Assembly: GCA_947627475.1 (NCBI GenBank) | Contig: CANQWE010000004.1 | Span: 7 to 64,006, forward strand | Source of the DNA: an uncultured Clostridia bacterium | GTDB lineage: Bacteria; Bacillota; Clostridia; Oscillospirales; CAG-272 | DNA: 64,000 nt | Direction of reading: 5' to 3' | Shown here: positions 7,697-44,706 of the stretch, one piece after another | How the letters are laid out: each line of letters opens with the position of its first letter | Numbering within the stretch: the stretch's first letter is position 1 | The notes under the pieces: generated by a model | Databases searched by the model: none | What the model was told of the DNA's origin: nothing | Seen by the model: the letters and a program-made list of their open reading frames with translations, nothing else | Translations under genes and position numbers: made by a program

Positions 7697-7737
7697 GTAA
7701 ATCCTTCAATATATCATTATATGAAAGGTTCTGTAAA

Positions 7738-9139: not shown

Positions 9140-9236
9140 ATTACTATCCCGTTAAAACAGCTTTAAAAGTGTTTGTTTTGAAGCTGTTTGGTTTATCTTC
9201 CTGTCCCTTTTCGAGCGAATCAGCAAACAGAACTCT

Positions 9237-9264
9237 GCAGGATGCGCATAGCGCATCCTGCTTT
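9237..9264 (+). terminator. Stem-loop, weak terminator candidate upstream of the pseudouridine synthase gene
   Basis: 11-bp stem gcaggatgcgc / gcgcatcctgc with a 3-nt loop, followed by only TTT. Confidence 0.35.
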
Positions 9265-9304
9265 CATATAATGTGACCGCATAAGCGGCAGAAATGGAGC
9301 TTCT

Positions 9305-9961
9305 ATGGAAATTCTGTATGAAGACGCAAGATTGATTCTTGTAATCAAGCCCCCTGGCGTCCCTTCCCAGGACGATCCCACCGGGCGGCCCAGCATGGTC
9401 GGTCTTCTCTCTGACGAAAGGGCCTCGCAGGTTTATTGTATACATCGGTTGGACACAGCGGTAGGAGGTGTTATGGTATATGCCAAAACAAAACAAGCAG
9501 CCGGCGCCTTGTCTGTACTATTTCAAAACAGTCAAGTGACAAAGCAATACTGTGCGATTGTCCATGGCGGGGGAAAAGGAGGCATTATGGAAGATCTATT
9601 ATATCACGATAAAAGAATCAACAAATCCTTTGTCGTGCAAACGCAGCGAAAGGGAGTAAAACATGCGGTGCTGGAATACAAAACAGTGAATACCCGTGGA
9701 GAACTGTCTCTTGTAAATATCCAGCTAAAAACCGGACGCCCACATCAAATTCGTGCCCAGTTTTCCTCCAGAGGCATGCCACTCCTGGGCGATCGAAAAT
9801 ATGGATCCCCCCAGCGCTGCCCAATCGCTCTGTGGTGTCATCATCTTTCTTTTGTACACCCCTTCACCGAAAAACAAATAATCGGTACTGTCCCTCCGCC
9901 ACAGGCAGAGCCGTGGATGCGATTTAAAGATTCTTTAGAAAATGGAGTTTCCAACTCATAA
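9305..9961 (+). CDS. RluA-family pseudouridine synthase (no S4 domain)
   Basis: HRLDTAVGGVMVYAKT catalytic-Asp motif and TGRPHQIR motif. Confidence 0.88.
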   Translation: MEILYEDARLILVIKPPGVPSQDDPTGRPSMVGLLSDERASQVYCIHRLDTAVGGVMVYAKTKQAAGALSVLFQNSQVTKQYCAIVHGGGKGGIMEDLLYHDKRINKSFVVQTQRKGVKHAVLEYKTVNTRGELSLVNIQLKTGRPHQIRAQFSSRGMPLLGDRKYGSPQRCPIALWCHHLSFVHPFTEKQIIGTVPPPQAEPWMRFKDSLENGVSNS

Positions 9962-9980
9962 TGAATATAAAAGTAAATAT

Positions 9981-10014
9981 AAAAAGGCTCCTCTCTGATG
10001 GGGAGCCCTTTTAT
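9981..10014. terminator. Bidirectional terminator between convergent genes
   Basis: GC-rich stem ggctcc / ggagcc flanked by an A-run and a T-run, between the stops at 9961 and 10017. Confidence 0.5.
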
Positions 10015-10016
10015 AT

Positions 10017-11180
10017 TTAAAAATACCGCTTTAATCCAGTCGGTGCTTCCGGCTTGCGTTCCTTGCCTTGCAGCATGCCCAGGAGTTCATCCAATTCATC
10101 GTCAGATATATCTTCACTGTCATCTTCTGCTGCAGTGCTCGTCTGCTCTGCCTCTTTTTTCTCTGCAGGCGCAGCGTCAACATTCATTTTTTCGTTTAAA
10201 TTCTTGGCGGATTCTGCCTCGTTTTCATTTTCAAAACCGGTAGCAATGATAGTGATTTTCATAGAGTCTTCCATGTTGGGATCAAACGCAACACCCCATA
10301 TCACGGTAGCATCCTCATGGGCCTCATCGGCAATCATAGTACATGCAGTATCGATCTCTTCCATACTGATATCCGGGGAAGCAGTAATATTGCCCAATAT
10401 ACCTCTTGCACCACTGATAGAGGTCTCCAGGAGCGGGCTGGAAATCGCCGCTTTTGCAGCCAACTCCGCCTTTTCCTTACCAGAGGCTTCACCCACGCCC
10501 ATGTGTGCAAAACCTGCGTCCTGCATAACAGATGTAACGTCCGCAAAATCCAGGTTAATATATCCAGGTACATTGATTAATTCGGAAATACTCTGCACAC
10601 CATGGCTGAGTACATCGTCAGCAATTTCAAAAGCATTGATCATGGTGATGGGCTTGTCCGATACCTGCTTGAGCCGCTCATTGGGAATAATTACAAGAGA
10701 ATCCACAAACTTGCTCAACTCTGCAATTCCAATATCTGCCTGTGTCTTTCTTTTTTTTCCTTCAAAAGCAAAGGGCTTCGTGACAATCCCGACAGTGAGC
10801 ATACCCATTTCTTTTGCGATCCGCGCAACAATAGGCGCCGCACCTGTTCCTGTACCGCCTCCCATACCAGTAGTAATAAACACCATGTCAGCACCGGTTA
10901 TGGCAGTTTTGATTTCTTCGATGCTCTCTTCTGCAGATTTTGCACCAATCTCCGGATTGGAGCCGGCGCCGTGTCCTTTGGTGATTTTCTCACCAATGGG
11001 AATTTTATGGGTTGCAGTAGAATGTTGCAGCGCCTGTTTATCTGTATTGATGGCGATAAAATCTACGCCGCGCACATTGGTTGTAATCATCCTGTTTACC
11101 GCATTGTTTCCGCCGCCGCCAACACCTACAACTTTTATATTTACGCCGCTTTCAAATTCTTCATCCAGTTCAAAAGGCAT
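10017..11180 (-). CDS. ftsZ: Cell division protein FtsZ
   Basis: [13 protein letters not shown] and tubulin signature [10 protein letters not shown]. Acidic C-terminal tail. SD ggagga. Confidence 0.97.
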
Positions 11181-11264
11181 ATTTCCTATCCTCCGTAATT
11201 GATTGGGGCACTGACCTGCACTTTCTTTTATATGTACACATGCAGGCAGAATTACATATATACT

Positions 11265-11293
11265 ATAATATACTGACTTGGCGAATTTTGCAA
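11265..11293 (-). promoter_or_regulatory. Candidate sigma-A promoter for ftsZ
   Basis: Minus strand reads TTGCAA, 17 nt, TATTAT in the AT-rich 250-nt gap upstream of ftsZ. Confidence 0.45.
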
Positions 11294-11432
11294 GATGTTT
11301 TGCAATATTTTTTTGTTTTTATTTTATTTTTTTGCAAAAAATCCAGTTTTTCAAGGGAAATAACCACATTTTTCCTATTGTTTACAATTGCAAAATATTG
11401 TGAATTCTGCAATTGCATACAAATAAATGCTT

Positions 11433-12593
11433 CTAATTCAGATCCAATTGGTTGTCGATAATTACGCTGGTGGCATTTAAGTCCGTCAGATCAACGCTGG
11501 CTTTGTTGTCTCCCGAAAAGAGCTCGTCTTCCAGCACGGCAACAGCCAAGCGAAGCTTCGTTTCGATCACATCCGTATTTCCAAAGAGAAGCTTGTATTT
11601 TTCATCACAGACCATAGCGATGTTGTGTGGACTTCGCAGATCTACCACACTGATGCGCCCTGCCAAATCTGACGCTGCAAGAGCATCCAAAACCGTTTGC
11701 ATATATGTCCCGCTGCGTTCATTGGAAAACACGATTTTTTTACCGGATATCGCTTCCTGAATCTGCGGGAGCTTTAATTTCATGAGGCCCTGCTCTTTTG
11801 CATCTGTTTTGGAAATTGGATCGAGCATTCTGAGCGAAGGAGAAATTTCCCAGAATTCTCCGTAAAATTCTGCATAATACATAGGGGCTTCTTCCTCAAT
11901 AGAAAAAGCAATGGATCCGGGCGGCGTACGTTCCACATCTACTGCAGACACATATGGACATTGCAACATGATTTTTTCCTGCACGACACGAGAGCTAAAG
12001 GAATATAAATGATCGCCCAGGTCAACGCCGCAGGAGGCAAGAATTTCTTCTGCAGTATATTGGCTGTTGCCGGTAGCATCCAAATTGCGTATTACAAATA
12101 AAAGCTGATAGGTAACAACGCACAGGACCACAAATACACCAAAGACCAATGCAACGGATATTAGGGCTTCCCGCAGTTTACGCCGCCTTCTTCCTTGAGA
12201 CGCCCGCTGATATGCTTCTACGCGTTTTTTTTCTTCCTGAGGGCCCCGATCCCAACGCTCTTGCTGATTTCTTGAAGTACCCTTCGACGTGGTCCTGTTT
12301 CCTTGGGACGTAGCGGGACGCTGCTGCCGATCCGACGCCGATGCACGTGCTGCGCTTTGGTGACCGGGGCGGGAACCCGGTTTAGAATCATGGGGGGTGG
12401 GCTGCATGCGGGAACGGAATCCGTCATAATACGCTCTGCCTGTGTTTGTATGAGACTTGTCCGCTCCTATAGAAGGTCTGCCTGGGGGGCGTGTTCTGGG
12501 AGGAGTCAACTGGGGACTGCGGCGCTGTGCCGCCTGCAGTTCTAAAAGCTGCTGCAATTTTTCTGCATAGTAAGCCTCTGCAGATTTACCCAT
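11433..12593 (-). CDS. ftsQ: FtsQ/DivIB-type cell division protein with a long basic low-complexity N-terminal tail
   Basis: Single TM helix followed by a POTRA-like extracellular domain. Position between murG and ftsZ. Start set to the ATG at 12593 (SD aaggggg); alternative start at 12611. Confidence 0.75.
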   Translation of the reverse strand: MGKSAEAYYAEKLQQLLELQAAQRRSPQLTPPRTRPPGRPSIGADKSHTNTGRAYYDGFRSRMQPTPHDSKPGSRPGHQSAARASASDRQQRPATSQGNRTTSKGTSRNQQERWDRGPQEEKKRVEAYQRASQGRRRRKLREALISVALVFGVFVVLCVVTYQLLFVIRNLDATGNSQYTAEEILASCGVDLGDHLYSFSSRVVQEKIMLQCPYVSAVDVERTPPGSIAFSIEEEAPMYYAEFYGEFWEISPSLRMLDPISKTDAKEQGLMKLKLPQIQEAISGKKIVFSNERSGTYMQTVLDALAASDLAGRISVVDLRSPHNIAMVCDEKYKLLFGNTDVIETKLRLAVAVLEDELFSGDNKASVDLTDLNATSVIIDNQLDLN

Positions 12594-31216: not shown

Positions 31217-32965
31217 TCACAGAGACCGTTTTACATAATGTGTGTGCAAAAGCTCATGTGCCTTATGGCTGTTTGGCTCACCTAGGAACTCATCATATAC
31301 AAGTTTGACGATGGGGTTTTCATGAGATTTACGATAAGGCAGATTTTTGTCTGCATCGTAAAGAATCTTTGCACGGACAGCACGCAAATCAATAGAATTA
31401 CGCACGCTTGCAGGCTGGATCGGCTGTCCTCCACCGTTTACACAGCCGCCGGGACATGCCATAATCTCGATAAAGTCTGCTTTATATTCTCCACTCTGGA
31501 TACCACGCAGCAGTTTGCCTGCATTTGCGGTGCCGCTGGCCACTGCCACACGAACAGTCATATCGCCCAGCTTATATTCAGCAAATTTGATCCCCTCTGT
31601 ACCACGTACATCTTCAAATTCTACCTTTTCCAAAGTAGTTCCCAGAATCACCTCTGCTGCAGTACGAAGCGCCGCTTCCATAACGCCGCCGGTAGCGCCG
31701 AAGATTGCGCCTGCACCGGAACCGATGTCGATCGGTGTATCGAATTTTTCCTCCGGCAGCATTTTGAAGTTGATGCCGGCAGACTCGATCATACGGCCAA
31801 GTTCTCTGGTGGTAACGGCGATATCCACATTCTGCAGGTCGTCATTGGACTGGCCCTCTCTCCCGACTTCAAATTTCTTAGCCGTACAGGGAATCGCAGA
31901 TACAAATACGACATCCTCCGGATCTACGCCCATCTTTTTGCAGAAGAACGCCTTATAGATAGCGCCAAACATCTGCTGGGGAGATTTACAGGTAGACAGG
32001 TTGTCGATCATTTCCGGGAAGTAGTGCTCACAGTATTTGATCCATCCGGGAGAACAGGATGTGATCATAGGAAGGGTACCGCCGTTTTGGATACGGCCCA
32101 AAAGCTCAGTAGCCTCTTCCATAATCGTCAGGTCCGCTGTAAAGTTCATGTCGTATACGCCGTCAAAGCCCAGGCGCTTCAGAGCAGCAACCATTTTTCC
32201 TTCACAGTCGGTACCAGGCTCATAGCCAAAGCATTCACCAATCTGCGCACGTACAGAAGGAGCACAGCAGATCGCCACATGCTTGGTGGGATCGTTCAGT
32301 GCCTCACGGATTCTGTCTGTATCATCCTTTTCATACAGCGCTCCTACAGGACATGCCACGATACACTGTCCGCAATTGATACAGGTGGTATCTGCAAGAT
32401 CGGCCTCAAAGGCGCAGCCTACAACTGTATCATAGCCGCGGTTCTGCATGCCGATGGCACCGATTCCCTGCACCCGGTTGCACGCACCTACACAGCGGCG
32501 GCAAAGGATACATTTATTGGGATCCCGCACAATAGAAGGGCCTGTAGTTTCCAGCGGCATCGGCTCAGTTTTCACCGGCTTGAAGTAGTCCTCCTCCACG
32601 CCGTAATCCAGAGCATATTTCTGCAGTTCGCAGGTCTTGGAACGGATACAGGAAAGACATTTTTTCTCGTGGGCAGAAAGTACCAACTGTATATTCATTT
32701 TCCGGGCAGCCTGCACCTTGGCCGTATTGGTAAGAATTTCTGTACCGTCCCGCTCAATGGGATACACACAGGAGGTCACCAGACCTCTCGCGCCTACTAC
32801 CTCTACCAAGCACAGACGGCAAGCGCCGATCTCGTTTACATCTTTCAAATAGCACAGTGTAGGGATTTCAATGCCCGCCTGTCTGCACGCCTCCAGAACG
32901 GTAGTTCCGTAGGGCACAGAATACTCTGCGCCATTGATTTTTATATTGACCATTTTGGTTTCCAT
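31217..32965 (-). CDS. hydA: [FeFe]-hydrogenase catalytic subunit, NuoEF-associated (bifurcating/Hnd type)
   Basis: N-terminal 2Fe-2S and multiple 4Fe-4S Cys motifs. H-cluster motifs TSCSPGW, IPCTAKKFE, EIMACPGGCVNGGG. 582 aa. Confidence 0.93.
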   Translation of the reverse strand: METKMVNIKINGAEYSVPYGTTVLEACRQAGIEIPTLCYLKDVNEIGACRLCLVEVVGARGLVTSCVYPIERDGTEILTNTAKVQAARKMNIQLVLSAHEKKCLSCIRSKTCELQKYALDYGVEEDYFKPVKTEPMPLETTGPSIVRDPNKCILCRRCVGACNRVQGIGAIGMQNRGYDTVVGCAFEADLADTTCINCGQCIVACPVGALYEKDDTDRIREALNDPTKHVAICCAPSVRAQIGECFGYEPGTDCEGKMVAALKRLGFDGVYDMNFTADLTIMEEATELLGRIQNGGTLPMITSCSPGWIKYCEHYFPEMIDNLSTCKSPQQMFGAIYKAFFCKKMGVDPEDVVFVSAIPCTAKKFEVGREGQSNDDLQNVDIAVTTRELGRMIESAGINFKMLPEEKFDTPIDIGSGAGAIFGATGGVMEAALRTAAEVILGTTLEKVEFEDVRGTEGIKFAEYKLGDMTVRVAVASGTANAGKLLRGIQSGEYKADFIEIMACPGGCVNGGGQPIQPASVRNSIDLRAVRAKILYDADKNLPYRKSHENPIVKLVYDEFLGEPNSHKAHELLHTHYVKRSL

Positions 32966-32985: not shown

Positions 32986-34785
32986 TTACTTCTTGTAAAT
33001 CGCGCCGAATTTACATTTTTCAATACAAGCGCCGCACTTCAGACATTTCTCCGGATCGATGACATGCGGATTCTTGACCGTACCGGAAATTGCGTCTGCA
33101 GGACATACCCGGGCGCAAAGGGTACAGCCTTTACACTTGTCAGGATCGATGTTGTAAGAAAGAAGTTTTTTGCACACACCGGCAGGACATCTTTTTTCTT
33201 TGATATGGGCTTCATATTCATCCCGGAAATACCGAAGCGTGGACAGAACCGGGTTAGGGGCTGTTTGTCCCAGACCGCAAAGGGATGCAGACTTAATATA
33301 ATTTGCCAGTTCCTCCAGCTTATCAAGATCTTCCATCTCCCCGTTGCCCTCGGTGATTCTATTCAGAATCTCCAGCATACGAACAGTGCCGATCCGGCAG
33401 GGAGCACATTTACCGCAGGACTCATCTACAGTAAACTCTAAGAAGAACTTAGCAAGGTCTACCATACAGGTATCCTCATCCATGACGATCAGACCACCGG
33501 AACCCATCATAGAACCGATTTCCAGCAAATTGTCATAGTCGATAGGCGTATCGATCAGAGATGCGGGAATACATCCGCCGGAAGGACCGCCGGTCTGGGC
33601 CGCTTTAAATTTTTTGCCGCCCGGGATACCGCCGCCGATTTCTTCTACGATTTCCCGCAGTGTGGTCCCCATAGGCACTTCCACCAGGCCTGTGTTGGTA
33701 ATCTTACCGCCCAGGGCAAATACTTTTGTACCCTTGGACTTTTCTGTACCCATAGAGGCAAACCATTCCGGCCCGTTCAAAATGATCTGGGGAATGTTTG
33801 CATAGGTCTCTACGTTGTTCAGAATCGTAGGACGCTCAAAAAGGCCCTTCACAGCCGGGAACGGAGGACGCGGACGGGGCTCACCGCGCTTGCCTTCTAT
33901 GGAGGTCATCAGCGCTGTCTCTTCACCACATACGAAGGCGCCGGCGCCAAGGCGCAGCTGAATATCAAAATTGAATCCGGTATCCAGAATATTGTTGCCA
34001 AGCAGGCCGTATTCTCTTGCCTGCTGCAAAGCGATCTCCAAGCGGTTTACGGCAATGGGATACTCTGCACGCACATAGATATAACCCTGGTCGGCACCGA
34101 TAGCATAACCTGCAATGGCCATTGCCTCCAGTACGGCATGCGGGTCGCCTTCCAAAACGGAACGGTCCATAAATGCACCCGGGTCGCCTTCGTCTGCGTT
34201 ACAGCAAACATACTTCTTCCCTTCGCTGCCCATAGCAAACTTCCATTTCAGACCAGTGGGGAATCCTGCTCCGCCGCGCCCCCGCAGGCCGGAATCCAGC
34301 AGTGTCTGCACAACATCCTCTCTGCTCATTTCCGTCAGCACCTTTGCCAGGGCAAAGTACCCGTCCATTGCTATGTATTCATCAATTTTTTCCGGGTTGA
34401 TTACACCGCAGTTGCGCAGTGCAACACGCTTTTGCTTTTTATAGAAATCCGTATCGGAAAGAGAGGTGTGCAGTGCATGTGCCTCTCCTTCTGCGTCATC
34501 GTTTTTATTATAAACCAGACGATCTACGATGCGCCCTTTCAGCAGATGTTCAGACACGATTTCCGGGATATCCTCTTCGGTAACTCTGGAATAAAATGTT
34601 CCCTCCGGATACACGATCATAATTGGTCCCAGCGCGCACAAACCAAAGCATCCGGTCTGGACGATTTTTATTTCTTCGCTCAGGTCATTGGCTGCCAGTT
34701 CCTTTGCAAGCGCCTCCCGCAGCGCAGTACTGCCGGAGGATGTACAGCCTGTACCTCCGCAAATCAAAACATGTGAACGTACCAT
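32986..34785 (-). CDS. hydB: NuoF-like flavin/NAD(P)H-binding hydrogenase subunit
   Basis: N-terminal thioredoxin-like 2Fe-2S, GLRGRGGAGFPTGLKW FMN motif, C-terminal 2x[4Fe-4S]. Start set to the ATG at 34785 (SD ggaggg). Confidence 0.93.
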   Translation of the reverse strand: MVRSHVLICGGTGCTSSGSTALREALAKELAANDLSEEIKIVQTGCFGLCALGPIMIVYPEGTFYSRVTEEDIPEIVSEHLLKGRIVDRLVYNKNDDAEGEAHALHTSLSDTDFYKKQKRVALRNCGVINPEKIDEYIAMDGYFALAKVLTEMSREDVVQTLLDSGLRGRGGAGFPTGLKWKFAMGSEGKKYVCCNADEGDPGAFMDRSVLEGDPHAVLEAMAIAGYAIGADQGYIYVRAEYPIAVNRLEIALQQAREYGLLGNNILDTGFNFDIQLRLGAGAFVCGEETALMTSIEGKRGEPRPRPPFPAVKGLFERPTILNNVETYANIPQIILNGPEWFASMGTEKSKGTKVFALGGKITNTGLVEVPMGTTLREIVEEIGGGIPGGKKFKAAQTGGPSGGCIPASLIDTPIDYDNLLEIGSMMGSGGLIVMDEDTCMVDLAKFFLEFTVDESCGKCAPCRIGTVRMLEILNRITEGNGEMEDLDKLEELANYIKSASLCGLGQTAPNPVLSTLRYFRDEYEAHIKEKRCPAGVCKKLLSYNIDPDKCKGCTLCARVCPADAISGTVKNPHVIDPEKCLKCGACIEKCKFGAIYKK

Positions 34786-34804: not shown

Positions 34805-35176
34805 TCAAAGCTTTGTATTGCCAATCAAATATTCCATAACAGGTTTCCCACCCTTCAGGTGCTCTTCTACAACCCGTTTGGCTTTTTCAGGCGTCATTTT
34901 TACATATGTAGTCTTTTCTTTTCCGTCCTCAAAGATCTCAACTACCGGTTCATACTGGCAGATGCCGATGCACCCGGTCTGGGTTACCATCACCTTGTCG
35001 GTGAGATTGGCTGCAGCCACTTCCTCCACAAAGGTATTGAGCACCGGTCTAGCGCCTGCTGATATTCCGCAGGTAGCCATACCCACTACGACACGGACGT
35101 CTCCGGATCCTGTCCGAATGGCGACTTTGTCTTTCATTTGCTCTCTGATCGCTGCAAGTTCTGATAACGATTTCAT
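34805..35176 (-). CDS. Thioredoxin-like [2Fe-2S] ferredoxin (HndB/HydD-like small subunit)
   Basis: ATCGISAGA ... TGCIGICQYEP pattern. Start set to the ATG at 35176 (SD ggaaaggaag). Confidence 0.8.
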   Translation of the reverse strand: MKSLSELAAIREQMKDKVAIRTGSGDVRVVVGMATCGISAGARPVLNTFVEEVAAANLTDKVMVTQTGCIGICQYEPVVEIFEDGKEKTTYVKMTPEKAKRVVEEHLKGGKPVMEYLIGNTKL

Positions 35177-35210: not shown

Positions 35211-35759
35211 TTATAATTGTTGATATTGTTCTTGTAAATACGATCTGATAAAGCCAAGCACTTCATAGCTGTCCAGAGGAATATCCTCCCCCAGTATACT
35301 GCGCATTTCAGCCGTATTCATTGCAACACTGCCGGAAGGTTTACAGTGGCAGTAAACAAAATCTACGTCCGGGCTTCCCTGAACCAGGGTCACGATCGTT
35401 TCTGTAAGATCCCCAAGCGGGATAAAATCAATATGATCTGTGTGAAACACAGCAGTTACCACCGTACCGTGATCTGCATACTCCGCTGCACTTTTGGAAG
35501 CAACCGTAACGTCGCCCCCAGTCTGCCGGGCAAGCATCTGCAGAAAAGGAACGCCCAGTCCGACGCTTCGGGTCTTTCTGGTAGTGTAAAACGGATCAAA
35601 CAGGCGTCTGACCTGCTCCGGGGTCATACCGCAGCCGTCGTCCTGAACGGTCAGCGTCAGTACCGCATCCCGCTCCTCCAGTCGGATTTCAATATGCTTA
35701 GCTCCCGCCCGTACAGAATTCATGGCAATATCCAATATATAGAGAGATAAATCTTTCAT
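35211..35759 (-). CDS. GHKL (histidine-kinase-like) ATPase domain protein
   Basis: DDGCGM, DPFYTTRK, GLGVPF boxes (N, G1, G2-like). Its ATG at 35759 overlaps the stop of the PHP gene (ATGA). Confidence 0.8.
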   Translation of the reverse strand: MKDLSLYILDIAMNSVRAGAKHIEIRLEERDAVLTLTVQDDGCGMTPEQVRRLFDPFYTTRKTRSVGLGVPFLQMLARQTGGDVTVASKSAAEYADHGTVVTAVFHTDHIDFIPLGDLTETIVTLVQGSPDVDFVYCHCKPSGSVAMNTAEMRSILGEDIPLDSYEVLGFIRSYLQEQYQQL

Positions 35760-36490
35760 TTGCCCTCCAAAATTGCCAGAAGATTTTCCCGCACCAAGGC
35801 ACTGCTGTACGGCTCGTCCTGGATTTCTATACTGTGCTGCGCACCGGATATATCCCACAAGTAATGTGCGTCGGAGCTGGTAACACAGCGTAAATTCTCT
35901 AACACAGGATAGGCAGACGCAAGCTCCAGCCGATTTCCTGTGGGACTCAGCTCGAAGCTGGTATACCTGGGCTCTGTAGGAAACGTGCCCAATACAGAAA
36001 TCACGCCGCCGGATTCCCGGTCAATGTGCGCAGGCATACACATGCCCCCAAAGGAGCGGCACAACCGGGTCCCCTCTTCCAAGGAAAGGGACGTGGCGCT
36101 GATCAGCAGGGTTTCTTCCTCCCGCAGCACCCGGTCTGCAGCATCCATCACAAGCTGGTGTCCGAAAATATCCGGCCGGTTCTTCACAGGCATTCTTGCC
36201 GCCGCCACATGCTCTCCAAAAGCCATCGCTCCGTCCAAATCCCGAAACAGGCACAGCAGATGGATCTCCTCCGCAGTAGTGAGTTCCATACCAGGCACAG
36301 GAATAATACCATATGTCCTGCACGTCTGCCAAAAAGCAGGGCAGTTATCTGTTGTGTTATGATCGGTAAGGGCCGCGATCTGCAGCCCTGCCACGGCCGC
36401 CATGCCGGCGATGTTCGCAGGCGTCATATCCGTATCCCCGCAAGGGGACAGGCAGGAATGGATATGCAGATCGTAATAATATTTACTCAT
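35756..36490 (-). CDS. PHP-domain metal-dependent phosphoesterase
   Basis: YYDLHIHS ... LTDHNT PHP motifs. Start at 36490 overlaps the upstream gene by 8 nt. Confidence 0.85.
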   Translation of the reverse strand: MSKYYYDLHIHSCLSPCGDTDMTPANIAGMAAVAGLQIAALTDHNTTDNCPAFWQTCRTYGIIPVPGMELTTAEEIHLLCLFRDLDGAMAFGEHVAAARMPVKNRPDIFGHQLVMDAADRVLREEETLLISATSLSLEEGTRLCRSFGGMCMPAHIDRESGGVISVLGTFPTEPRYTSFELSPTGNRLELASAYPVLENLRCVTSSDAHYLWDISGAQHSIEIQDEPYSSALVRENLLAILEGK

Positions 36491-36815
36491 TGGACAAAGC
36501 AGAGCCAAGGGAGCAGCACAGTTGATACACAGACCGGGTATCGGAAAAAAAGGTCACATCCTTTTCCGCGGCAGCCTGCAGCGTCTCCGCATCCGGCTGC
36601 ACGCCTTCTGCTAAAATCACACACGCCGCTTCTGTAAGGCTGGCTACCGCCGCCACATTTATATTGGACATGATCGTAACCCAAATATCCCCCGCCTGGG
36701 CATGGCTCATCACCCAGCTAAGCAGGTCTCCCGCATAAACGCCGGCAGCTTCCTTATCCAGGCTGCCGCAAATATGGGAGAGGGAAAGTCTGTCCACCAG
36801 TACATGCAATTTCAT
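36483..36815 (-). CDS. DRTGG-domain protein (copy 2 in transcription order)
   Basis: About 110 aa, similar in architecture to 38615-38983. ATG at 36815 lies immediately after the stop of the upstream gene. Confidence 0.6.
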   Translation of the reverse strand: MKLHVLVDRLSLSHICGSLDKEAAGVYAGDLLSWVMSHAQAGDIWVTIMSNINVAAVASLTEAACVILAEGVQPDAETLQAAAEKDVTFFSDTRSVYQLCCSLGSALSNE

Positions 36816-36821
36816 AAGCAA

Positions 36822-38162
36822 TTATCCGTTCTCAGGCTTTGGATGCGTATCCTCTCCGCAGGGCTGTGTACGCAGTACTTCCTTCACCTGTGCGGCATCC
36901 TTTCTCTTTTCAATATAGTCGTGAAAAACCATCCGCATGAATACCACGCATTCGTCTGCACACGCCTCTCCCCGGACAATATCCTCAGCAAACGCTGCGC
37001 AGGTCGGGGCGCCGCAGGATCCGCAGTCCAAATCAGGAAGGTCTTTTCGAATATCCTGAATATCTGCCATCATCCGCATGGCTTCTTTCCTGTCCTGGGA
37101 CAGCGGGGACGCCGGCGCATATTCCACAGGCGGCATAACCGCTTCCTCCGGCACATCCCCTTCTCCTGGATGGAGATTGGGCGATACAGGCAAATACCGC
37201 TTCAAGGACTGGATCCGCGCCTTTGCTATGTATGGATTCGCCACAGTCATCACCCCGCCCACGCAGCCGCCGTCACAGGCATTGAGCTCTACAAACTCCA
37301 GTTCGGGGAAATCGGCGTTTTCAATCTGATCCAGCACACGGATGACATTTTCAATTCCATCGGCTGCAAGATACCGGTCGTTAAACACCGCGGTAGATTC
37401 CCCGCCGGCAACTGCCCAGCTGACGCCCACCATCCCAGAATCTGTTGAAGTCTGCGGAACGATGATTTTATTCATATGGGATACCAGTGGAAAGTATACG
37501 TCGGATATAGATAGAACCAAATCAATGTTGCTCTTTTGTCCTGCAAAGGAATTTTTCACATAACTGACTTTTGCCGGGCAAGGAGAAATAAAGCAAATGC
37601 CGATTTCCTCCGCTGTAAGCTCAGGATGCTCCCTAAGCACTTTTTCTCTGGCCAGTTTTCCTGCGATTTCAACGGGAGGCAGAATCGGCAGCACATTCTC
37701 ACATAAGTATGGAAAACGCATACTGATCAGCCGAACGATCACTGGGCAGGCTGAACTGATCACCGGTTTTTTGAGTCCCTCCCTGCGCAGATACTGTCTG
37801 GTATAGCCAGACACCAGTTCCGCTGCTTTAGAGACCTCATACACCTCGTCAAAGCCCATATCTAAAAGGCCCTGCAATACAAAGTCTATATCAGAAAGAT
37901 GATCAAACTGTCCATACAAAGAAGGAGCAGGAAGTGCAACCTTATACCGAAACTGCCCCATCGCCTCTAAGGAATCATGGGTCGCTTTTTTTGCCTTATA
38001 TGGACAAACACGAATGCACTCGCCACAGTCAATACACCGCTGGGAACGAATTCTCGCCTTCCCTTCCCGGATGCGGATCGCCTCCGTCGGGCAACGCTTC
38101 AGGCAGTGTGTACACCCCTTACATTTATCCACATCAAGGGACACTGAATGCTTATATTCCAT
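36822..38162 (-). CDS. Putative sensory [FeFe]-hydrogenase-like protein (HydS-type, no PAS domain)
   Basis: N-terminal 2x[4Fe-4S] ferredoxin motifs. Variant H-cluster motifs SSACP, SPCPAK, ELNACDGGCVGG. C-terminal CGSCGAPTC-x16-C. Confidence 0.8.
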   Translation of the reverse strand: MEYKHSVSLDVDKCKGCTHCLKRCPTEAIRIREGKARIRSQRCIDCGECIRVCPYKAKKATHDSLEAMGQFRYKVALPAPSLYGQFDHLSDIDFVLQGLLDMGFDEVYEVSKAAELVSGYTRQYLRREGLKKPVISSACPVIVRLISMRFPYLCENVLPILPPVEIAGKLAREKVLREHPELTAEEIGICFISPCPAKVSYVKNSFAGQKSNIDLVLSISDVYFPLVSHMNKIIVPQTSTDSGMVGVSWAVAGGESTAVFNDRYLAADGIENVIRVLDQIENADFPELEFVELNACDGGCVGGVMTVANPYIAKARIQSLKRYLPVSPNLHPGEGDVPEEAVMPPVEYAPASPLSQDRKEAMRMMADIQDIRKDLPDLDCGSCGAPTCAAFAEDIVRGEACADECVVFMRMVFHDYIEKRKDAAQVKEVLRTQPCGEDTHPKPENG

Positions 38163-38192
38163 TCTATCAGCTCCACAACCGATGAAGCGGCG

Positions 38193-38618
38193 TTACACCT
38201 TTACCTTCATCACAATTTTTGTACCCTTGCCTAGCTCTGTCTCAATTTCCATGGAATCCGTATATTTTTTCATATTCGGCAGTCCCATACCGGCTCCAAA
38301 TCCAAGAGAGCGGATGTTGTCCCTGGCTGTAGAAAAGCCCTCCTGCATGGCAAGAGACACGTCCGCAATACCCGGTCCCTGGTCCCGCAGCACCATGATT
38401 ATTTCATCGGGAAGCACAAATACATCTGCAGTACCCCCATTTGCATGGATTACCATATTGATTTCACCCTCATACATAGCAATTGCCACCTTGCGGATGA
38501 TGTCCGGCGGGAAACCCAACTGGCGAAGGTTCTTTTTTACCTCCACTGACGCAGCGCCGGCAGAAGAAAAATCCTCTCCGTCTACGTCAAAATGAAAATT
38601 GATTCCTGCGTCTGTCAT
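38193..38618 (-). CDS. RsbW/SpoIIAB-like anti-sigma-type serine kinase (GHKL ATPase)
   Basis: 141 aa with EGEINMVIHA, DQGPGI and GFGAGMGLPN boxes. Overlaps the upstream gene by 4 nt. Confidence 0.8.
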   Translation of the reverse strand: MTDAGINFHFDVDGEDFSSAGAASVEVKKNLRQLGFPPDIIRKVAIAMYEGEINMVIHANGGTADVFVLPDEIIMVLRDQGPGIADVSLAMQEGFSTARDNIRSLGFGAGMGLPNMKKYTDSMEIETELGKGTKIVMKVKV

Positions 38619-38983
38619 TCTGCCGCCACTTTCGTTCCATTAAGGCCGGCGCTGTACAGAGTGCCGCAGGCTTCATACATGCGAAGCGCAGAGTGCATCA
38701 CCACGATGCCGCTGCCCCGAGCAAGCTCCACCATCTCCGGCGTTGGATTTTTCCCGCGCACAAAGACGACGCAGTGCATATCCATCATTTCCGCAGTACG
38801 CATCACCTGAGGATTGACAAGACCCGTGAGCAAAACGGCCTGGTCCTTTACAAAGGCAAGCACGTCGCTCATCATATCGCTGCTGCAGGCTGAGTACACT
38901 TCTCTGTCCAGTTGGTCTTCTCCGCACAGGAGCTCAGCGTCCAGAAGCTCTCTGATTTTTCTGATTTTCAAATTTCTGCCCAT
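38615..38983 (-). CDS. DRTGG-domain protein (copy 1)
   Basis: 122 aa, with AVLLTGL ... VVFVRG pattern typical of DRTGG domains. Confidence 0.65.
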   Translation of the reverse strand: MGRNLKIRKIRELLDAELLCGEDQLDREVYSACSSDMMSDVLAFVKDQAVLLTGLVNPQVMRTAEMMDMHCVVFVRGKNPTPEMVELARGSGIVVMHSALRMYEACGTLYSAGLNGTKVAAE

Positions 38984-39034
38984 GCCTTTCCGATTTCATA
39001 TCAAATAGATATTTTCTGCAGGAAGGTTTTTGTC

Positions 39035-39532
39035 TCAGCCTTGATATTTTGCGATAATTCCTTTAATGTCGTCCGGCACAAGTCTTCCGTAAACGTCTTC
39101 TCCCACGGTAAGCACGGGAGCCAGTCCGCACGCACCGATACAGCGGGTAGCTTCCAGGCTGAATTTTCCATCGTCTGTCACACCGCCGCTTTCGATTCCA
39201 AGCTCTTTTTCCAGTCTCTCCATCAGAAGGCCGCTGCCCTTCACATAGCAAGCGGTTCCAAGACAGACGCTTACCGGATACTGCCCCTTCGGATTGAGCA
39301 AAAACTGGGAATAGAACGTGGCGACGCCAAACACTTCAGAAACAGGGATTCCCATTTTCACTGCAATATGCTTTTGTACCTCGGGGGGGAGGTAGCCATA
39401 AATCTCCTGGGCCTTCTGCATGATCGGCATTAAGGCGCCATCTTCGTCCTTGTGCTGCTCGATGACCGCATCAAGCTGCGCATGCAGCTGGGGATTGTCA
39501 GTAAATTCTACTGACGTCAGTTTCTTTTTCAT
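39035..39532 (-). CDS. hydC: NuoE-like [2Fe-2S] hydrogenase subunit
   Basis: CLGTACYVKG ... CIGACGLAP NuoE cysteine pattern. Start set to the ATG at 39532 (SD caggagga). Confidence 0.92.
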   Translation of the reverse strand: MKKKLTSVEFTDNPQLHAQLDAVIEQHKDEDGALMPIMQKAQEIYGYLPPEVQKHIAVKMGIPVSEVFGVATFYSQFLLNPKGQYPVSVCLGTACYVKGSGLLMERLEKELGIESGGVTDDGKFSLEATRCIGACGLAPVLTVGEDVYGRLVPDDIKGIIAKYQG

Positions 39533-39694
39533 AGATCTTCCTGTCCTCCTGAACAAGTATGTTATCTACAGTATTATACAATAAAATATTATCGATTTCC
39601 ATAGTTTATAGCAATTTTATTGATTTTTTTCGTGCTATTTTCTATTGTTTTATCCACTTTGTATTATTTATGGTTAAAATATCCACAACAGCAA

Positions 39695-40982: not shown

Positions 40983-41858
40983 TTACAGACCTTCTACAGC
41001 ATCCGCTGCAGGTACGATATATTCGTTTTCCATCAGTTCGATCACACCTTTGTCTACCAGTGCTGTCAGCTTTGTATCCAGAGGAATTCTTGCAAGAAGA
41101 GGAATGCCATATTCTCCCGCGACCGTCTCAGCCCTGCTTTCGCCAAACAACGGGATTTCCTTGCCGCAGTCCGGACATACCGCATAGGACATGTTTTCCA
41201 CCATCCCCAGAATGGGAATGTTCATAAGCTTCGCCATATTCACCGCTTTTTCCACAATCATAGAAACCAGTTCCTGGGGCGTTGTCACAATAATGATTCC
41301 GTCCAGGGGCAGAGACTGGAATACGGTAAGGGGTACGTCACCTGTTCCGGGAGGCATATCTACAAACATGTAGTCTACATCTGTCCAGATCACATCTGTC
41401 CAAAACTGCTTTACAGCGCCTGCAATCACAGGTCCCCGCCAAACTACCGGGCTGCGGGCATCCTCCAAGAGCAGGTTGACGCTCATCAGCTGAATGCCTG
41501 TTTTGGTATATGCGGGAAGCATCGTTTCTCCACTGACTTCCACGCCTCCGGATACACCAAAGGCCTTCGGCACAGAAGGGCCGGTTATATCTGCGTCCAA
41601 TACGGCAACACCCCAGGAACGCCGACGCATCTCTGTGGCCAGCATGGAAGTGACTAGGGATTTACCAACACCGCCTTTTCCCGAGACAACGCCAACAACG
41701 TGCCGCACAGAGGAGGCAGGGTTTAAAGGTTCCTTCTGAATTTCGGGCCCCCTGGAAGCGCAGTCCGCACTGCAGCTGGAGCAATCATGGGTACATGTAT
41801 TTTGTTCGTCCATTATATCAAACTCCGATCTACTTATTATAGGATATTGATCATCCAT
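40983..41858 (-). CDS. Mrp/NBP35/ApbC-family Fe-S cluster carrier ATPase
   Basis: Deviant Walker A SGKGGVGKS, CPxC (CPDC), N-terminal Cys-rich stretch. Confidence 0.9.
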   Translation of the reverse strand: MDDQYPIISRSEFDIMDEQNTCTHDCSSCSADCASRGPEIQKEPLNPASSVRHVVGVVSGKGGVGKSLVTSMLATEMRRRSWGVAVLDADITGPSVPKAFGVSGGVEVSGETMLPAYTKTGIQLMSVNLLLEDARSPVVWRGPVIAGAVKQFWTDVIWTDVDYMFVDMPPGTGDVPLTVFQSLPLDGIIIVTTPQELVSMIVEKAVNMAKLMNIPILGMVENMSYAVCPDCGKEIPLFGESRAETVAGEYGIPLLARIPLDTKLTALVDKGVIELMENEYIVPAADAVEGL

Positions 41859-41916: not shown

Positions 41917-44706
41917 TTATTTACATTTATCCGTCTTTTGCCGCACAGTCAAAGCGCGCACAATAGACACCGCCGCCACAGACACAAGCACTGGCAGCAG
42001 AGCAAAGATAAACAAAAGCCAACCCGGCGCCAGCGTATGCAGCGTAACATTTTGCGCCGCGGTGAGTCCTCCTGCAGCGATTGTCCATACGGTTCCCAAA
42101 ATTGCAGCTGCATAGGGGATCCAGAAAAACCGCCCATAACGAGAGTCCTTATGAAACAATCCATTGCCTCCGCAAAATTCCGAGGCGATGAAAGGCATCG
42201 CGCATATGCAGGATAAAAACATGCAGCTTTGCTGTATGCGTCCGTTCAGATCACAGGACGGCCCCAGCAAATCGATCAAAGCGCGGCCTAAATAGGGGGA
42301 AAGCACTGCCAGCACCGCCAATAAGGTTCCATAAAGGGCCAGCACCAGTGTACTGCCTGCCTCTGTTTGCAAAAAACCTTTTTGGGGCAGAGGGGATTTT
42401 AAAATTTTTTTATCATCGATATCCTCGGTCTTTGCCTCCTCCTTGGAAACAGGAGGCACATATTTTCCGGCTGGAATCAATGCGGCAGCGAAAGATACAG
42501 AAAAGTCCATAAGCATTCCCCAAAACACCACCTGAGAAGCCGAAAGAAGCGGCAGCCCTGCGGCGGCGCAGATCAGAAGCAGCACCACACGGGTCATATG
42601 GGATACAACCAGATAGGAAAAAATATTGTGGATGTTGCGAACTGCGCTACGGCAGCGCATCATCAAGCCCATTACCGGAGAAAACCCGTCTTCTCCAGAG
42701 CCAACTATGCCATTGGCTGTAACGCGAAGCGCCTGGGGAATATCTGCTCCATATTTGCCCGGTACCGGAGCCGCAAACGCAATGTCCGCCTGCTGCATGA
42801 TCCACATATCCTCCACACCCCAGCCAAGATATCCCCGGCAAAGGCCGCTTTTCTTGCTCAAACGCATGAATCGTACCCTTTCCCGGATGCCCTCCATTCC
42901 CCCGGGAGTACTGATCATTAATAGCTTTCCAGGCTCCAGTGGCAAGCTGCGTGCAGCCATGCCTTCCTGCTGGGACATGTAAATGTCGTCCTGCTCTAAA
43001 ATTCCCTGGGCCCGGGCAAAACAGTGATCCTCCTTCGAACCGTCGGAGAACAGCACAACGCGCCCCCCTTCTTTTCGAAAGTTTTCCAGAGCAGCCAAAG
43101 TATTCGCCTGGGGGCGCTGGGATACTGCAAAAAAACCCTCAAAGCACAAATTTGACTGGAGCACAGAGATCCGACGCAGGCTGTTGTAATGGGAGTTTCG
43201 AAATCCCACTGCTGCCACTGCGATCCCCTGCATGGTAAGAGAAGCTGCAAGAGATAAAATTTTGTCCCGCTCCTGAGATGTAAGGGGAAGCGTTTCCTCA
43301 CCGATTCGCTGGGTAGTACATTGGGACAAAACATTCTCTACTCGGCCAAGGCAAGTAAAATAATAAGCGTTTTCCTTTGCCAGGAGCGCACAGTCCATGC
43401 CGCCTGCCTCTGTCTGCTCGCAGGACACATGCTGCACAACCATATAGCGATCCTGTTCCGGCATTTTCTCAATTTGTTGCTCTTTCCACAAAGAACGGAC
43501 AACAGAATACGCAAGAAAGCCCTCCTGCCCTTGACTTTGCCCAATCTGCCCAGCAGCCGGCGCGCCGTCAGGAGCAATTCCTGTGGCACAATGTGCCAAA
43601 TACAGTAGTCTTTGGGGCACATGTCCCGTTTTCTCCGTAACGGTTTCATAGGTATTTCCTTCATAATAGGCGTGGAAAGAAAATTTTTCACTTTTTAAAG
43701 CCGCAGAGGAACGCAGAAACAACACCTGTATTTCAGCTGCTCGCTCAGCAGAGGTAGCATTGTGGTACACCGCCTCGCCCTTCTTCTTTTGATATAAGGA
43801 AGCAGCCCATGCTGCAGCACCAGCCGCGCTTATGTATTCGTTGAGGCAGGCTGCCGCCATTGCAATAGAAGGAAGAAAAACGGTAAACAGATCCAATTTG
43901 CCGATTGCCGTGCCTACCAGACAGATCACCAGGGCAATCAGAATGAGTCCCAGGCTGCACTGGCGGCCCAAATCCGATAATCTGCTCAGTACCGGCAGAT
44001 CTTCCCCACCGGACAGTTCGATCTGCCCTTCTCTGGCGTAGATCAGTGTATTTTCTCCAGTAGCCACTGCCATGCCCATACAAAAGCCGCGAATAACCGC
44101 AGAAGAAGCATACAGCATATTGGTACGCATGGAGATCGGTGTGGGCTCCACCCCCTGAGGAATATCCTGGGCATTTTTGGAGACGATTCCCTCGTGTCCC
44201 GTAACCATTCCCTCAGACACCAAAACATTGTCCGCAGCGGTCAGCCGCACATCACAGGGAACTGTATCCCCCGTATCCAAAACAATGACATCTCCAGGGA
44301 CCACCTGGTCCGCAGGGATCGTTTTGACCGTACCGGCCCGGACGACTCTCGCCCTGGGGAGCGCGGAAGCGGCGTTTTTTTCAAAAACCCGCTGGGCGAA
44401 CACATAGGTAAGAATCCGTGCGCACCGAACTGCCGCGAGCATGACGCAAACAGCGGCGGTTTCGGCCGCATTACCGAAAACCGCCGCAAGAAGCGCCGTG
44501 ATTACAAGAAGCACTGTGGAAAAGTCAGCCAGAGACCTGCCGGCATATCGCTGTAGCGATATGCTCCGAACCGTCCATATTTTATTGGCCCCCCTGCGCA
44601 GCCGTCTGGTGGCTTCCCGGTCTGTAAGCCCTGTCACGCTGTCTGTTTTAAAAACAGCTGAGAGTCTGTCGACCGTCAGGTGATGCCAATTTTTATCCTG
44701 TTTCAT
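41917..44706 (-). CDS. P-type ATPase homologue lacking all catalytic signature motifs
   Basis: Collinear with P2-type ATPases (N-terminal LTDREATRRL, A-domain PGDVIVLDTGDTVPCD, 10 TM). However TGES->TGHE, PEGL->NEYI, DKTGT->RSSAA, TGD->SDG, GDGVND->GWGVED. Confidence 0.8.
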   Translation of the reverse strand: MKQDKNWHHLTVDRLSAVFKTDSVTGLTDREATRRLRRGANKIWTVRSISLQRYAGRSLADFSTVLLVITALLAAVFGNAAETAAVCVMLAAVRCARILTYVFAQRVFEKNAASALPRARVVRAGTVKTIPADQVVPGDVIVLDTGDTVPCDVRLTAADNVLVSEGMVTGHEGIVSKNAQDIPQGVEPTPISMRTNMLYASSAVIRGFCMGMAVATGENTLIYAREGQIELSGGEDLPVLSRLSDLGRQCSLGLILIALVICLVGTAIGKLDLFTVFLPSIAMAAACLNEYISAAGAAAWAASLYQKKKGEAVYHNATSAERAAEIQVLFLRSSAALKSEKFSFHAYYEGNTYETVTEKTGHVPQRLLYLAHCATGIAPDGAPAAGQIGQSQGQEGFLAYSVVRSLWKEQQIEKMPEQDRYMVVQHVSCEQTEAGGMDCALLAKENAYYFTCLGRVENVLSQCTTQRIGEETLPLTSQERDKILSLAASLTMQGIAVAAVGFRNSHYNSLRRISVLQSNLCFEGFFAVSQRPQANTLAALENFRKEGGRVVLFSDGSKEDHCFARAQGILEQDDIYMSQQEGMAARSLPLEPGKLLMISTPGGMEGIRERVRFMRLSKKSGLCRGYLGWGVEDMWIMQQADIAFAAPVPGKYGADIPQALRVTANGIVGSGEDGFSPVMGLMMRCRSAVRNIHNIFSYLVVSHMTRVVLLLICAAAGLPLLSASQVVFWGMLMDFSVSFAAALIPAGKYVPPVSKEEAKTEDIDDKKILKSPLPQKGFLQTEAGSTLVLALYGTLLAVLAVLSPYLGRALIDLLGPSCDLNGRIQQSCMFLSCICAMPFIASEFCGGNGLFHKDSRYGRFFWIPYAAAILGTVWTIAAGGLTAAQNVTLHTLAPGWLLFIFALLPVLVSVAAVSIVRALTVRQKTDKCK

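Follow-up and report, generated by a model that had tools for sequence, protein, structure and literature searches.

A putative group D sensory [FeFe]-hydrogenase and a candidate phospho-circuit encoded with a bifurcating hydrogenase in an uncultured Clostridia bacterium

The stretch of DNA analysed here, referred to as the window, comprises 64,000 nucleotides (nt) of contig CANQWE010000004.1 (assembly GCA_947627475.1) of an uncultured Clostridia bacterium. On its minus strand, from position 39532 down to 31217, it carries ten co-directional open reading frames (ORFs), in which the genes of the bifurcating [FeFe]-hydrogenase HydABC(D) are found together with those of a second, sensor-class hydrogenase (HydS), a SpoIIAB-like kinase, two DRTGG proteins, a PHP phosphoesterase and a GHKL ATPase. 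On balance, we lean towards the interpretation that the window encodes an H2 sensor with a phospho-circuit, which would control the adjacent HydABC(D) hydrogenase. In the lineage of the window, the sensor genes are fused into the operon of the enzyme that they most likely control.

Bifurcating hydrogenases set the H2/NADH/ferredoxin balance of fermenting Clostridia in guts, rumens and digesters, and of biofuel strains. Group D hydrogenases often share an operon with a group A hydrogenase (Land et al. 2020), and the genes of the "D M2e" hydrogenases Athe_1292, Csac_1857, TTE0887, Cthe_0335, Cphy_3798 and Teth39_1463 sit five genes upstream of "A1 TR(M3)" bifurcating enzymes (Carere et al. 2012). 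Upstream phosphatases and kinases are mentioned by Rydzak et al. 2012. The association of M2e hydrogenases with kinases and with bifurcating hydrogenases, as well as the sensory hypothesis, has already been published, in 2012 and 2020; the sensory interpretation is unproven. No mention of DRTGG or PHP genes with these hydrogenases was found in the searchable literature, and an earlier description elsewhere is possible. An earlier note on the window, made from its sequence (the original prediction), stated that the signalling logic of this gene set is not worked out. This is in agreement with Schumann et al. 2026, where the interaction partners of the sensor are still called unknown and their identification critical. 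With the cluster itself already known and widespread, what is contributed here is a more precise list of its parts, obtained from about 165 loci.

Results

HydS has the features of group D

The order of the genes, 5' to 3', is hydC, DRTGG1, SpoIIAB-like kinase, HydS, DRTGG2, PHP, GHKL ATPase, hydD, hydB and hydA; all ten are present, with gaps of at most 51 nt and overlaps of 4 to 8 nt (Table 1). Some probable starts are slightly off those of the longest ORFs (DRTGG2 36815, PHP 36490, GHKL 35759, HydD 35176 and HydB 34785). This order and tight spacing are as described in the original prediction. The profile hidden Markov model annotation that it proposed was run with Pfam, which confirms every domain call of the ten proteins. 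No PAS, HisKA, receiver (Response_reg), HTH or sigma domain is found by Pfam in the ten operon proteins, and the previously noted lack of a DNA-binding, receiver or sigma domain holds true at the window locus and in all related loci.

As judged from its sequence, HydS is a member of the characterised group D/M2e class. It matches the Pfam Fe_hyd_lg_C family with an E-value of 5e-26, and it is 49% identical to TamHydS over 426 residues, end to end (E 7e-141). The TamHydS protein was rebuilt from the codon-optimised gene that Schumann et al. 2026 give in their supplement, and it was checked against a 99%-identical database protein. Every hydrogenase motif of the original prediction is located, with SSACP at residues 136-140, SPCPAK at 193-198, ELNACDGGC at 292-300 and the C-terminal CGSCGAPTC-x16-C motif (Cx2Cx4Cx16C) at 380-405, the latter with an additional Cys at x12. 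At the N terminus, two [4Fe-4S] motifs, CKGCTHCLKRCP (residues 14-25) and CIDCGECIRVCP (residues 43-54), are covered by the Fer4 and PF04060 matches of Pfam. The H-cluster cysteines of HydS are Cys139, Cys195, Cys296 and Cys300, corresponding to Cys300, Cys355, Cys499 and Cys503 of CpI. Conservation of these ligands, on which the sensory interpretation depends, is seen in the alignments: none of the four cysteines varies in 13 homologues, and in 86 their conservation is at least 97%. The proton-relay residue Cys299 is replaced by Ala (SSACP) and Met353 by Ser (SPCPAK), and the corresponding motifs of TamHydS are ISSACP and ISPCAAK.

No match to PAS is found in HydS with Pfam or NCBIfam, and the chain stops about 40 residues past the four-Cys motif. 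The traits of group D/M2e are the lack of PAS, the loss of Cys299, a hydroxyl residue (Ser or Thr) at the Met353 position and the C-terminal four-Cys motif (Land et al. 2020), and HydS is assigned to group D because it displays all the sequence-level features given in that study. The lack of a PAS domain, which had been thought striking, is a published defining trait of the group (Land 2020; Carere 2012). The proposal of a HydS-type sensory class beside a NuoEF-type bifurcating enzyme is upheld, and the class can now be given precisely as group D/M2e. A sequence search of the PDB finds no structure of a group D enzyme.

At the position of CpI Met497, in the ELNACDGGC segment (window 37263-37289), HydS has an Asn that is invariant in a 13-sequence alignment of its clade, whereas a Leu is found in TamHydS; TmHydS has a Ser at this position (Land et al. 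2020). Because of this Asn, in place of Leu, the second-sphere tuning of the H-cluster in the window clade may differ from that in TamHydS, the sole characterised group D enzyme. Homologues of HydS (cluster P0002, 95% identical) have the public name "4Fe-4S dicluster domain-containing protein", and one Joint Genome Institute record is named "RnfB"; the sensory hydrogenase class cannot be recognised from these names.

A five-gene module recurs with the hydrogenase genes

The synteny survey proposed in the original prediction was done by scanning one genome per GTDB species, which yields 80 loci with HydS proteins that are 57-77% identical, mostly from Oscillospiraceae, Acutalibacteraceae and Christensenellaceae metagenome-assembled genomes (MAGs) from gut and rumen. 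Eight loci, L081-L088 among the handles used below where needed, were added for distant group D proteins via a search with TamHydS, giving 88 genome/assembly loci, and a PHP-seeded metagenome scan added 80. The ten window proteins were mapped onto these loci by tblastn, and overall about 165 related loci from several bacterial classes were considered.

The kinase gene adjoins HydS on its upstream side in 88/88 genome/assembly loci, and DRTGG1 adjoins the kinase gene wherever both are detected (83/83). Within the 88 loci, the mapping finds DRTGG1 83 times, DRTGG2 85 times and PHP 82 times, the shortfalls being mostly at contig ends. HydS is also found upstream in 49 of the 50 PHP-seeded metagenome loci that have enough upstream sequence. 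Because of this recurrence, in the genome/assembly loci and in the metagenomes, the gene set is not a chance arrangement.

Three units are seen: DRTGG1-kinase-HydS, which are never apart; DRTGG2-PHP, which nearly always comes after them; and hydC-GHKL-hydD-hydB-hydA. The GHKL gene is always directly upstream of hydD, follows hydC with a median gap of 6 nt when the module is upstream, and keeps its place between these two genes in every layout of the tandem, divergent or ancestral type. The GHKL ATPase thus belongs to the structural operon and not to the sensor module. The proposed six-gene cassette inserted between hydC and hydB-hydA is not supported: the unit is a five-gene module, as GHKL stays with hydC and hydD.

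The hydC-first order of the window is found in 66 loci, all from the Oscillospirales-type gut/rumen set. In 11 loci, hydC is downstream of PHP, with the layout DRTGG1-kinase-HydS-DRTGG2-PHP, a gap of 108-338 nt and then hydC-GHKL-hydD-hydB-hydA. These are L081 (Thermoanaerobacter, with a HydS that is 96% identical to TamHydS), L082 (C. bescii), L083 (Coprothermobacter), L085 (Caldicoprobacter), L086 (T. thermosaccharolyticum), L087, L088 and four Oscillospirales genomes. The upstream-module layout is probably the ancestral one, because it is more widely spread across taxa, the polarity being inferred. The layout of the window is most simply explained by a shift of hydC to a position ahead of the five-gene sensor module, by which two transcription units would have been fused into one.

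Other arrangements also occur. The five-gene module and the hyd block are divergent in L156, L160 and L163. In L154 (4550-10073), the five-gene module has no hydABC nearby and is convergent with the gene of a 772-residue eukaryotic-type Ser/Thr kinase, and in L084 (Peptococcaceae, 6496-12025) only the DRTGG1-kinase-HydS trio is found, beside CheW and a PAS-GGDEF gene, without PHP and hydABC. A DRTGG2-PHP pair without HydS is seen in L168 (4508-5588), a region in which many ORFs overlap on both strands.

The DRTGG1/kinase, DRTGG2/PHP and PHP/GHKL junctions have a median overlap of 4 nt across the loci (-4 nt for DRTGG2/PHP, 82 loci), which suggests that interacting pairs are co-translated. In an exploratory mirror-tree comparison of 60 complete loci, without a significance test and controlled for the divergence of HydA/HydB, values of 0.73 for kinase-HydS and 0.76 for kinase-HydD are obtained; residual co-variation of 0.5-0.76 is seen among kinase, HydS, HydD, GHKL, PHP and DRTGG1, and none with HydC. 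A Cys-rich DUF6062 gene (about 255 residues) is found beside or near the module in four distant loci, L052, L085 (5404-6159), L087 (4909-5691) and L088 (6391-7173), and it is absent from the window.

The SpoIIAB-like kinase and the DRTGG proteins

The best NCBIfam match of the kinase is the anti-sigma F factor spIIAB (TIGR01925, E 2.5e-14, which is under the curated cut-off), and its only sequence matches in the PDB are SpoIIAB structures (1til, 1l0o and 1th8), covering residues 23-138. This is in agreement with the SpoIIAB/RsbW-like assignment of the original prediction. Across 86 homologues, conservation of the Glu-x3-Asn, DxGxG and GxGxGxG (ATP-lid) motifs is 97% or more, and the kinase is likely to be catalytically competent. 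No other protein of the module is as well conserved; the mean p-distance is 0.31 for the kinase and 0.41 for HydS.

DRTGG1 scores 25.2 bits with the Pfam DRTGG family (PF07085), which is exactly the cut-off, and DRTGG2 scores 20 bits, which is below it. The two proteins are paralogues, as shown by the profile-profile comparison with hhalign (probability 99.2%, E 9e-20). The DRTGG profile also matches the DRTGG domain of the CBS-pyrophosphatase (CBS-PPase), with an E-value of 3e-4. The AlphaFold2 model of DRTGG1 has a predicted local distance difference test score (pLDDT) of 84.8, and its top match in a Foldseek search of the PDB is the DRTGG protein AF1212 (2ioj, TM 0.74), with further matches to the DRTGG domain of CBS-PPase and to the N-terminal domains of HprK/P, MurE and LpxD. 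The canonical DR and TGG residues of the Pfam consensus are not kept in DRTGG1 and DRTGG2. Common to both paralogues is the invariant Ser of a D[LM][LM]S motif; Ser39 of DRTGG1 and Ser33 of DRTGG2 are candidate phospho-acceptor sites.

The PHP phosphoesterase and the GHKL ATPase

The metal-ligand residues of PHP (His9, His11, Asp43-His44, Glu69, His77, His155, Asp207 and His209) are invariant in 21 homologues, as is a family-specific CLSPC motif, and PHP is likely to be catalytically competent. Its nearest solved relatives in the profile search are TM0559 (2anu), EndoQ, the 3'-phosphoadenosine 5'-phosphate (pAp) phosphatase Cv1693 (2yb1) and RNase AM. The likeness to nucleotide phosphoesterases is remote, with E-values of 1e-5 to 1e-7 and alignments that for the most part cover the N-terminal HxH region. 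An assignment as a CpsB/YwqE protein-tyrosine phosphatase is not supported, these other families being matched instead.

The GHKL profile matches the catalytic domains of KinB, ZraS and WalK over residues 8-103 only, and it also matches MutL and Hsp90. No variation is seen in the N, G1 and G2 boxes, and the protein is likely to be a competent ATPase, as far as these boxes indicate. For its C-terminal region of about 80 residues, no relative is detectable by profile search. A true histidine kinase is rejected, as the DHp/HisKA domain is lacking, and by Pfam the ten proteins include neither such a domain nor the receiver partner that would be expected in a two-component system.

The bifurcating hydrogenase and the control region

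A group A HydA with Fer2_4 and a NuoG-like N terminus, a NuoF-like HydB and a NuoE-like HydC are encoded together, as in bifurcating operons. The best PDB match of HydA is HydA1 of the bifurcating enzyme of A. woodii (7q4v, E 4e-204), and HydA1 of T. kivui is matched with an E-value of 9e-172. HydD resembles the N-terminal thioredoxin-like domains of HoxF, NfnB and HydB, and the Aquifex [2Fe-2S] ferredoxin, and hydD is found by the tblastn mapping in all related loci.

The L1 motif of HydA is TSCSPGW (window 32042-32062, residues 302-308), in which a Ser replaces the second Cys, corresponding to CpI Cys300, a ligand of the cubane; in the L2 motif, IPCTAKK (31874-31894), an Ile is found at the position of CpI Met353. 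The TSCSPGW sequence recurs unchanged in A. woodii HydA1 (7q4v), and 50 HydA homologues from the related loci show at least 97% conservation of it; T. kivui HydA1 and CpI have TSCCP instead. HydD has only three cysteines (ATCG...GCIGIC), in a strongly conserved motif, and may lack an ordinary [2Fe-2S] cluster; the HydD of A. woodii has been described as a predicted cofactor-free protein.

Upstream of the operon is a terminator-like hairpin of the preceding gene (39719-39701). Between it and the hydC ATG at 39532 come an A/T-rich leader, then a promoter-like site and then an AGGAGG ribosome-binding site. The Rex-like inverted repeat TTGTGGATATTTTAACCA (coding strand), which lies 138 nt upstream of this ATG, differs from TTGTTAAnnnnTTAACAA at 3 positions. 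Taken alone, the Rex-like site of the window is weak and not above chance (4 matches found and 3.5 expected, with 3 mismatches), and only the enrichment across loci is informative. Across the loci, Rex-like boxes with at most 3 mismatches are found upstream of hydC in 33/82 loci, compared with 5.7 expected from shuffled sequences (about six-fold), and boxes with at most 2 mismatches in 13 of 82, compared with 0.65 expected. For C. bescii, an operon of "5 genes; Hyd hydrogenase system" from Athe_1295 is listed with a Rex site (Sander et al. 2018), and the GHKL gene is one of its members. Transcription of the operon thus appears to be handled by a Rex-type operator. The strongest promoter-like site in the operon (TTTACA-17-TATAAT, 11/12 consensus) is an internal one, at the GHKL/hydD junction (35238-35210, minus strand), and a sensor-independent hydD-hydB-hydA transcript could start from this predicted promoter.

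The gene directly upstream of hydC encodes a NAGPA phosphodiester glycosidase. Two genes upstream of hydC, on the minus strand, is a NUBPL/ParA-type Fe-S cluster carrier ATPase (40983-41858; Pfam ParA, E 6.5e-87), and further upstream is a 929-residue ORF (41917-44706), by appearance a candidate P-type ATPase; none of the three is a regulator.

Table 1. Features of the ten-gene operon and its candidate control region in the window, listed 5' to 3' on the coding strand.
Feature	Position	Strand	Description	Domain matches (Pfam) or elements	Spacing to next gene
Candidate control region	39573..39688	minus		Rex-like box 39671-39688; promoter-like site 39601-39573	
hydC	39035..39532	minus	NuoE-like thioredoxin-like [2Fe-2S] subunit, 165 aa, first operon gene	2Fe-2S_thioredx, E 5.6e-50	51-nt gap
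DRTGG1	38615..38983	minus	Single-domain, 122 aa, invariant SD[ML]MSDV (Ser39)	DRTGG, E 1.5e-5	4-nt overlap (DRTGG1 stop over kinase start)
Kinase	38193..38618	minus	SpoIIAB/RsbW-like GHKL serine-kinase-type protein, 141 aa	HATPase_c_2	30-nt gap
HydS	36822..38162	minus	Group D (M2e) putative sensory [FeFe]-hydrogenase, 446 aa	Fe_hyd_lg_C, two Fer4, FeS PF04060	6-nt gap
DRTGG2	36483..36815	minus	110 aa, invariant GDLLSxV (Ser33)	Weak DRTGG, E 6e-4	8-nt overlap
PHP	35756..36490	minus	PHP-family metal-dependent phosphoesterase, 244 aa	PHP	4-nt overlap
GHKL	35211..35759	minus	GHKL ATPase, 182 aa, part of structural hyd operon	HATPase_c, E 2e-18	34-nt gap
hydD	34805..35176	minus	Small thioredoxin-like, 123 aa, three Cys	2Fe-2S_thioredx, E 9e-6	19-nt gap
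hydB	32986..34785	minus	NuoF-like FMN/NADH subunit, 599 aa from conserved Met	Complex1_51K, NADH_4Fe-4S, SLBB, 2x Fer4, N-terminal 2Fe-2S_thioredx	20-nt gap
hydA	31217..32965	minus	Group A catalytic [FeFe]-hydrogenase, 582 aa	Fe_hyd_lg_C (E 7e-92), Fe_hyd_SSU, Fer2_4, NADH-G_4Fe-4S_3	

Discussion

Proposed mechanism and alternatives

In the proposed mechanism, H2 at the H-cluster would change the redox or conformational state of HydS, whose turnover is proposed to be slow because the proton-relay Cys is lost, by analogy with TamHydS. TamHydS is reported to have a low turnover, a high H2 affinity and a tolerance to CO, like regulatory hydrogenases, and beside it lies a histidine-kinase-like ATPase, a sensory role having been proposed (Land 2020). 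The SpoIIAB-like kinase, placed as an anti-sigma kinase is placed beside its sigma factor, would read the state of HydS and, with ATP, would bind or phosphorylate a small DRTGG protein, probably at the Ser that is invariant in the D[LM][LM]S motif. PHP, translationally coupled to DRTGG2, would reset the circuit. The output would be post-translational on the HydABC complex, possibly via the GHKL ATPase and HydD; such an output is the most likely one because no DNA-binding protein travels with the module and Rex appears to cover transcription. Post-translational action on the hydrogenase, as suggested in the original prediction, is plausible.

Several points weigh against this interpretation. 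TamHydS catalyses the reversible conversion of H2 and protons (Land 2020), and its C-terminal cluster is not reduced by H2 (Schumann 2026), which disfavours the simplest redox-relay signal; in favour of sensing, H2-induced changes of secondary structure in TamHydS are described in a report cited by Schumann 2026. Since the module is also found away from hydABC, in L084 and L154, it may have a target other than the hydrogenase complex. The closest solved relatives of PHP work on nucleotides or nucleic acids and not on phosphoproteins, and the mirror-tree correlations may reflect shared phylogeny. A STAS fold for DRTGG1, as would be expected of the antagonist in a partner switch, is rejected, as none is present among the Foldseek matches shown and none is found by Pfam. 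H2 sensing in vivo by group D enzymes is itself hypothetical, and phosphorylation of the components is only inferred.

A bolder version of the circuit is a non-canonical partner switch, in which DRTGG would replace STAS, PHP would replace PP2C and HydS would take the place of the sigma factor; by a route via GHKL and HydD, the bifurcating hydrogenase would be set on, off or in its direction by the H2 partial pressure. If true, this would be the first defined function of stand-alone DRTGG proteins and the first group D signalling pathway. The partner-switching idea of the original prediction fails the family-defining tests, as DRTGG1 lacks the STAS fold and PHP is not of the PP2C type, and it survives only as an analogy; the bolder version is tentative and rather doubtful. 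An unlikely alternative keeps the same sensor but has a transcriptional output, with HydS and the kinase acting on an unlinked transcription or sigma factor, as in HoxBC-HoxJ-HoxA or as proposed for the PAS-containing HydS/HfsB systems. Transcriptional control is what the published proposals take for granted in both sensory groups, and deletion of hfsB, encoding a group C sensor, raises the adhE transcript in T. saccharolyticum, in support of a regulatory role. Sigma factors are also the usual partners of SpoIIAB-type kinases, and the stand-alone modules of L084 and L154 would suit a diffusible target. However, no conserved regulator gene adjoins the module in the approximately 165 loci, and Rex already explains the transcription of the hyd operon. 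An AraC-family regulator flanks TamHydS (Land 2020), yet the gene directly upstream of DRTGG1 in the Thermoanaerobacter locus L081 has only weak Pfam matches to SPOR and DUF6279, and no DNA-binding domain.

It is distinctly improbable that HydS is not a sensor but a slow catalytic or accessory redox protein, with the ATPases, PHP and DRTGG proteins being assembly, maturation or protective factors. The reversible H2 turnover of TamHydS, the embedding of the window genes in a structural operon with translational coupling, the lack of an obvious output domain and the occurrence of chaperones among GHKL ATPases (in keeping with the MutL and Hsp90 matches) would fit such a role. Yet the kinase aligns over full length and specifically with SpoIIAB and keeps its catalytic residues, module proteins do not figure among the subunits given for the bifurcating HydABC/HydABCD complexes of A. 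woodii, T. maritima, M. thermoacetica and R. albus, and modules without adjacent hydrogenase genes exist (L084 and L154); a lost proton relay and low activity also fit sensing better than catalysis. Least probable of all is a nucleotide signal. PHP would then hydrolyse pAp, a dinucleoside polyphosphate, nanoRNA or a dinucleotide, either cyclic or linear, with the DRTGG proteins as subunits that bind the signal or serve as adaptors and the kinase-like ATPases making or sensing it. The nearest solved relatives of PHP include a phosphatase of 3',5'-nucleoside bisphosphates as well as RNase AM, EndoQ and TM0559, a DRTGG2-PHP pair occurs without HydS (L168) and a PAS-GGDEF gene is near the trio of L084. 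The nearest characterised multidomain relative of the DRTGG proteins is the regulatory region of CBS-PPase, which responds to adenine nucleotides, but the nucleotides are bound there by the CBS domains and not by DRTGG. Moreover, no signal cyclase or synthetase is conserved in the cluster, and the similarities of PHP are all remote.

From the comparison of the loci, the kinase and DRTGG1, which are never separated from HydS, emerge as its foremost candidate partners. DRTGG2-PHP is a second, separable pair, and the GHKL ATPase, which goes with HydC/HydD, is a candidate link to the enzyme. The invariant Ser39 and Ser33 are precise targets, testable in genetically tractable relatives (C. bescii, C. 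thermocellum and Thermoanaerobacterium). Among uncultured Oscillospirales of gut and rumen, the system occurs commonly.

Comparison with known systems

The closest known system is that of TamHydS, which shares the architecture of the window HydS (two N-terminal [4Fe-4S] motifs, Cys299 replaced by Ala, Met353 by Ser, Cx2Cx4Cx16C and no PAS); the nine accompanying genes of the TamHydS-type locus are also the same as those of the window. The same cluster is present in C. bescii (Athe_1292 and Athe_1297-1299), C. thermocellum (Cthe_0335 and Cthe_0340-0342) and Caldanaerobacter (TTE0887 and TTE0892-0894) (Carere et al. 2012). In the TamHydS-type loci, the sensor genes form a separate upstream unit, followed by the 108-338-nt gap, whereas in the window hydC leads and the ten genes are contiguous. 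TamHydS is from a thermophile, whereas the source of the window is a mesophilic gut MAG of the Oscillospirales type.

The group C (M2f) HydS/HfsB systems are those of T. maritima (TmHydS), R. albus (HydS) and T. saccharolyticum (hfsABCD). Common to these and the window HydS are the loss of the proton-relay Cys, the C-terminal four-Cys motif and an adjacent catalytic hydrogenase, and in both cases a Ser/Thr kinase and/or phosphatase is encoded alongside. In group C, however, PAS is fused to the hydrogenase and the serine phosphatase is HfsC, which is of the PP2C type, whereas the window has no PAS, has PHP in place of this phosphatase and has two DRTGG proteins. Genetic evidence for regulation is confined to group C, where it comes from hfsB.

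The partner-switching modules SpoIIAA-SpoIIAB-sigma F, with SpoIIE, and RsbV-RsbW-sigma B, with RsbU/RsbX, are related by their kinase. As in the spoIIAA-spoIIAB-sigF order, a small alpha/beta protein (about 120 residues) is followed in the window by a coupled GHKL kinase (about 140 residues) and a putative target, with a phosphatase nearby. Unlike in these modules, DRTGG takes the place of STAS, PHP that of PP2C and a hydrogenase that of the sigma factor: no STAS antagonist and no PP2C is found, and neither the window region nor the related loci contain a sigma factor.

In the HoxBC-HoxJ-HoxA system of Cupriavidus necator, the metal site ([NiFe]) and the proteins are unrelated to those of the window. 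HoxJ is a classical histidine kinase, described as having a PAS-like sequence, which phosphorylates the activator HoxA, a response regulator, and domains of the HoxJ/HoxA type are absent from the window proteins, as judged by Pfam. The concept is nevertheless the same, as in HoxBC a slow, inhibitor-tolerant hydrogenase is used as an H2 sensor that is coupled to a kinase.

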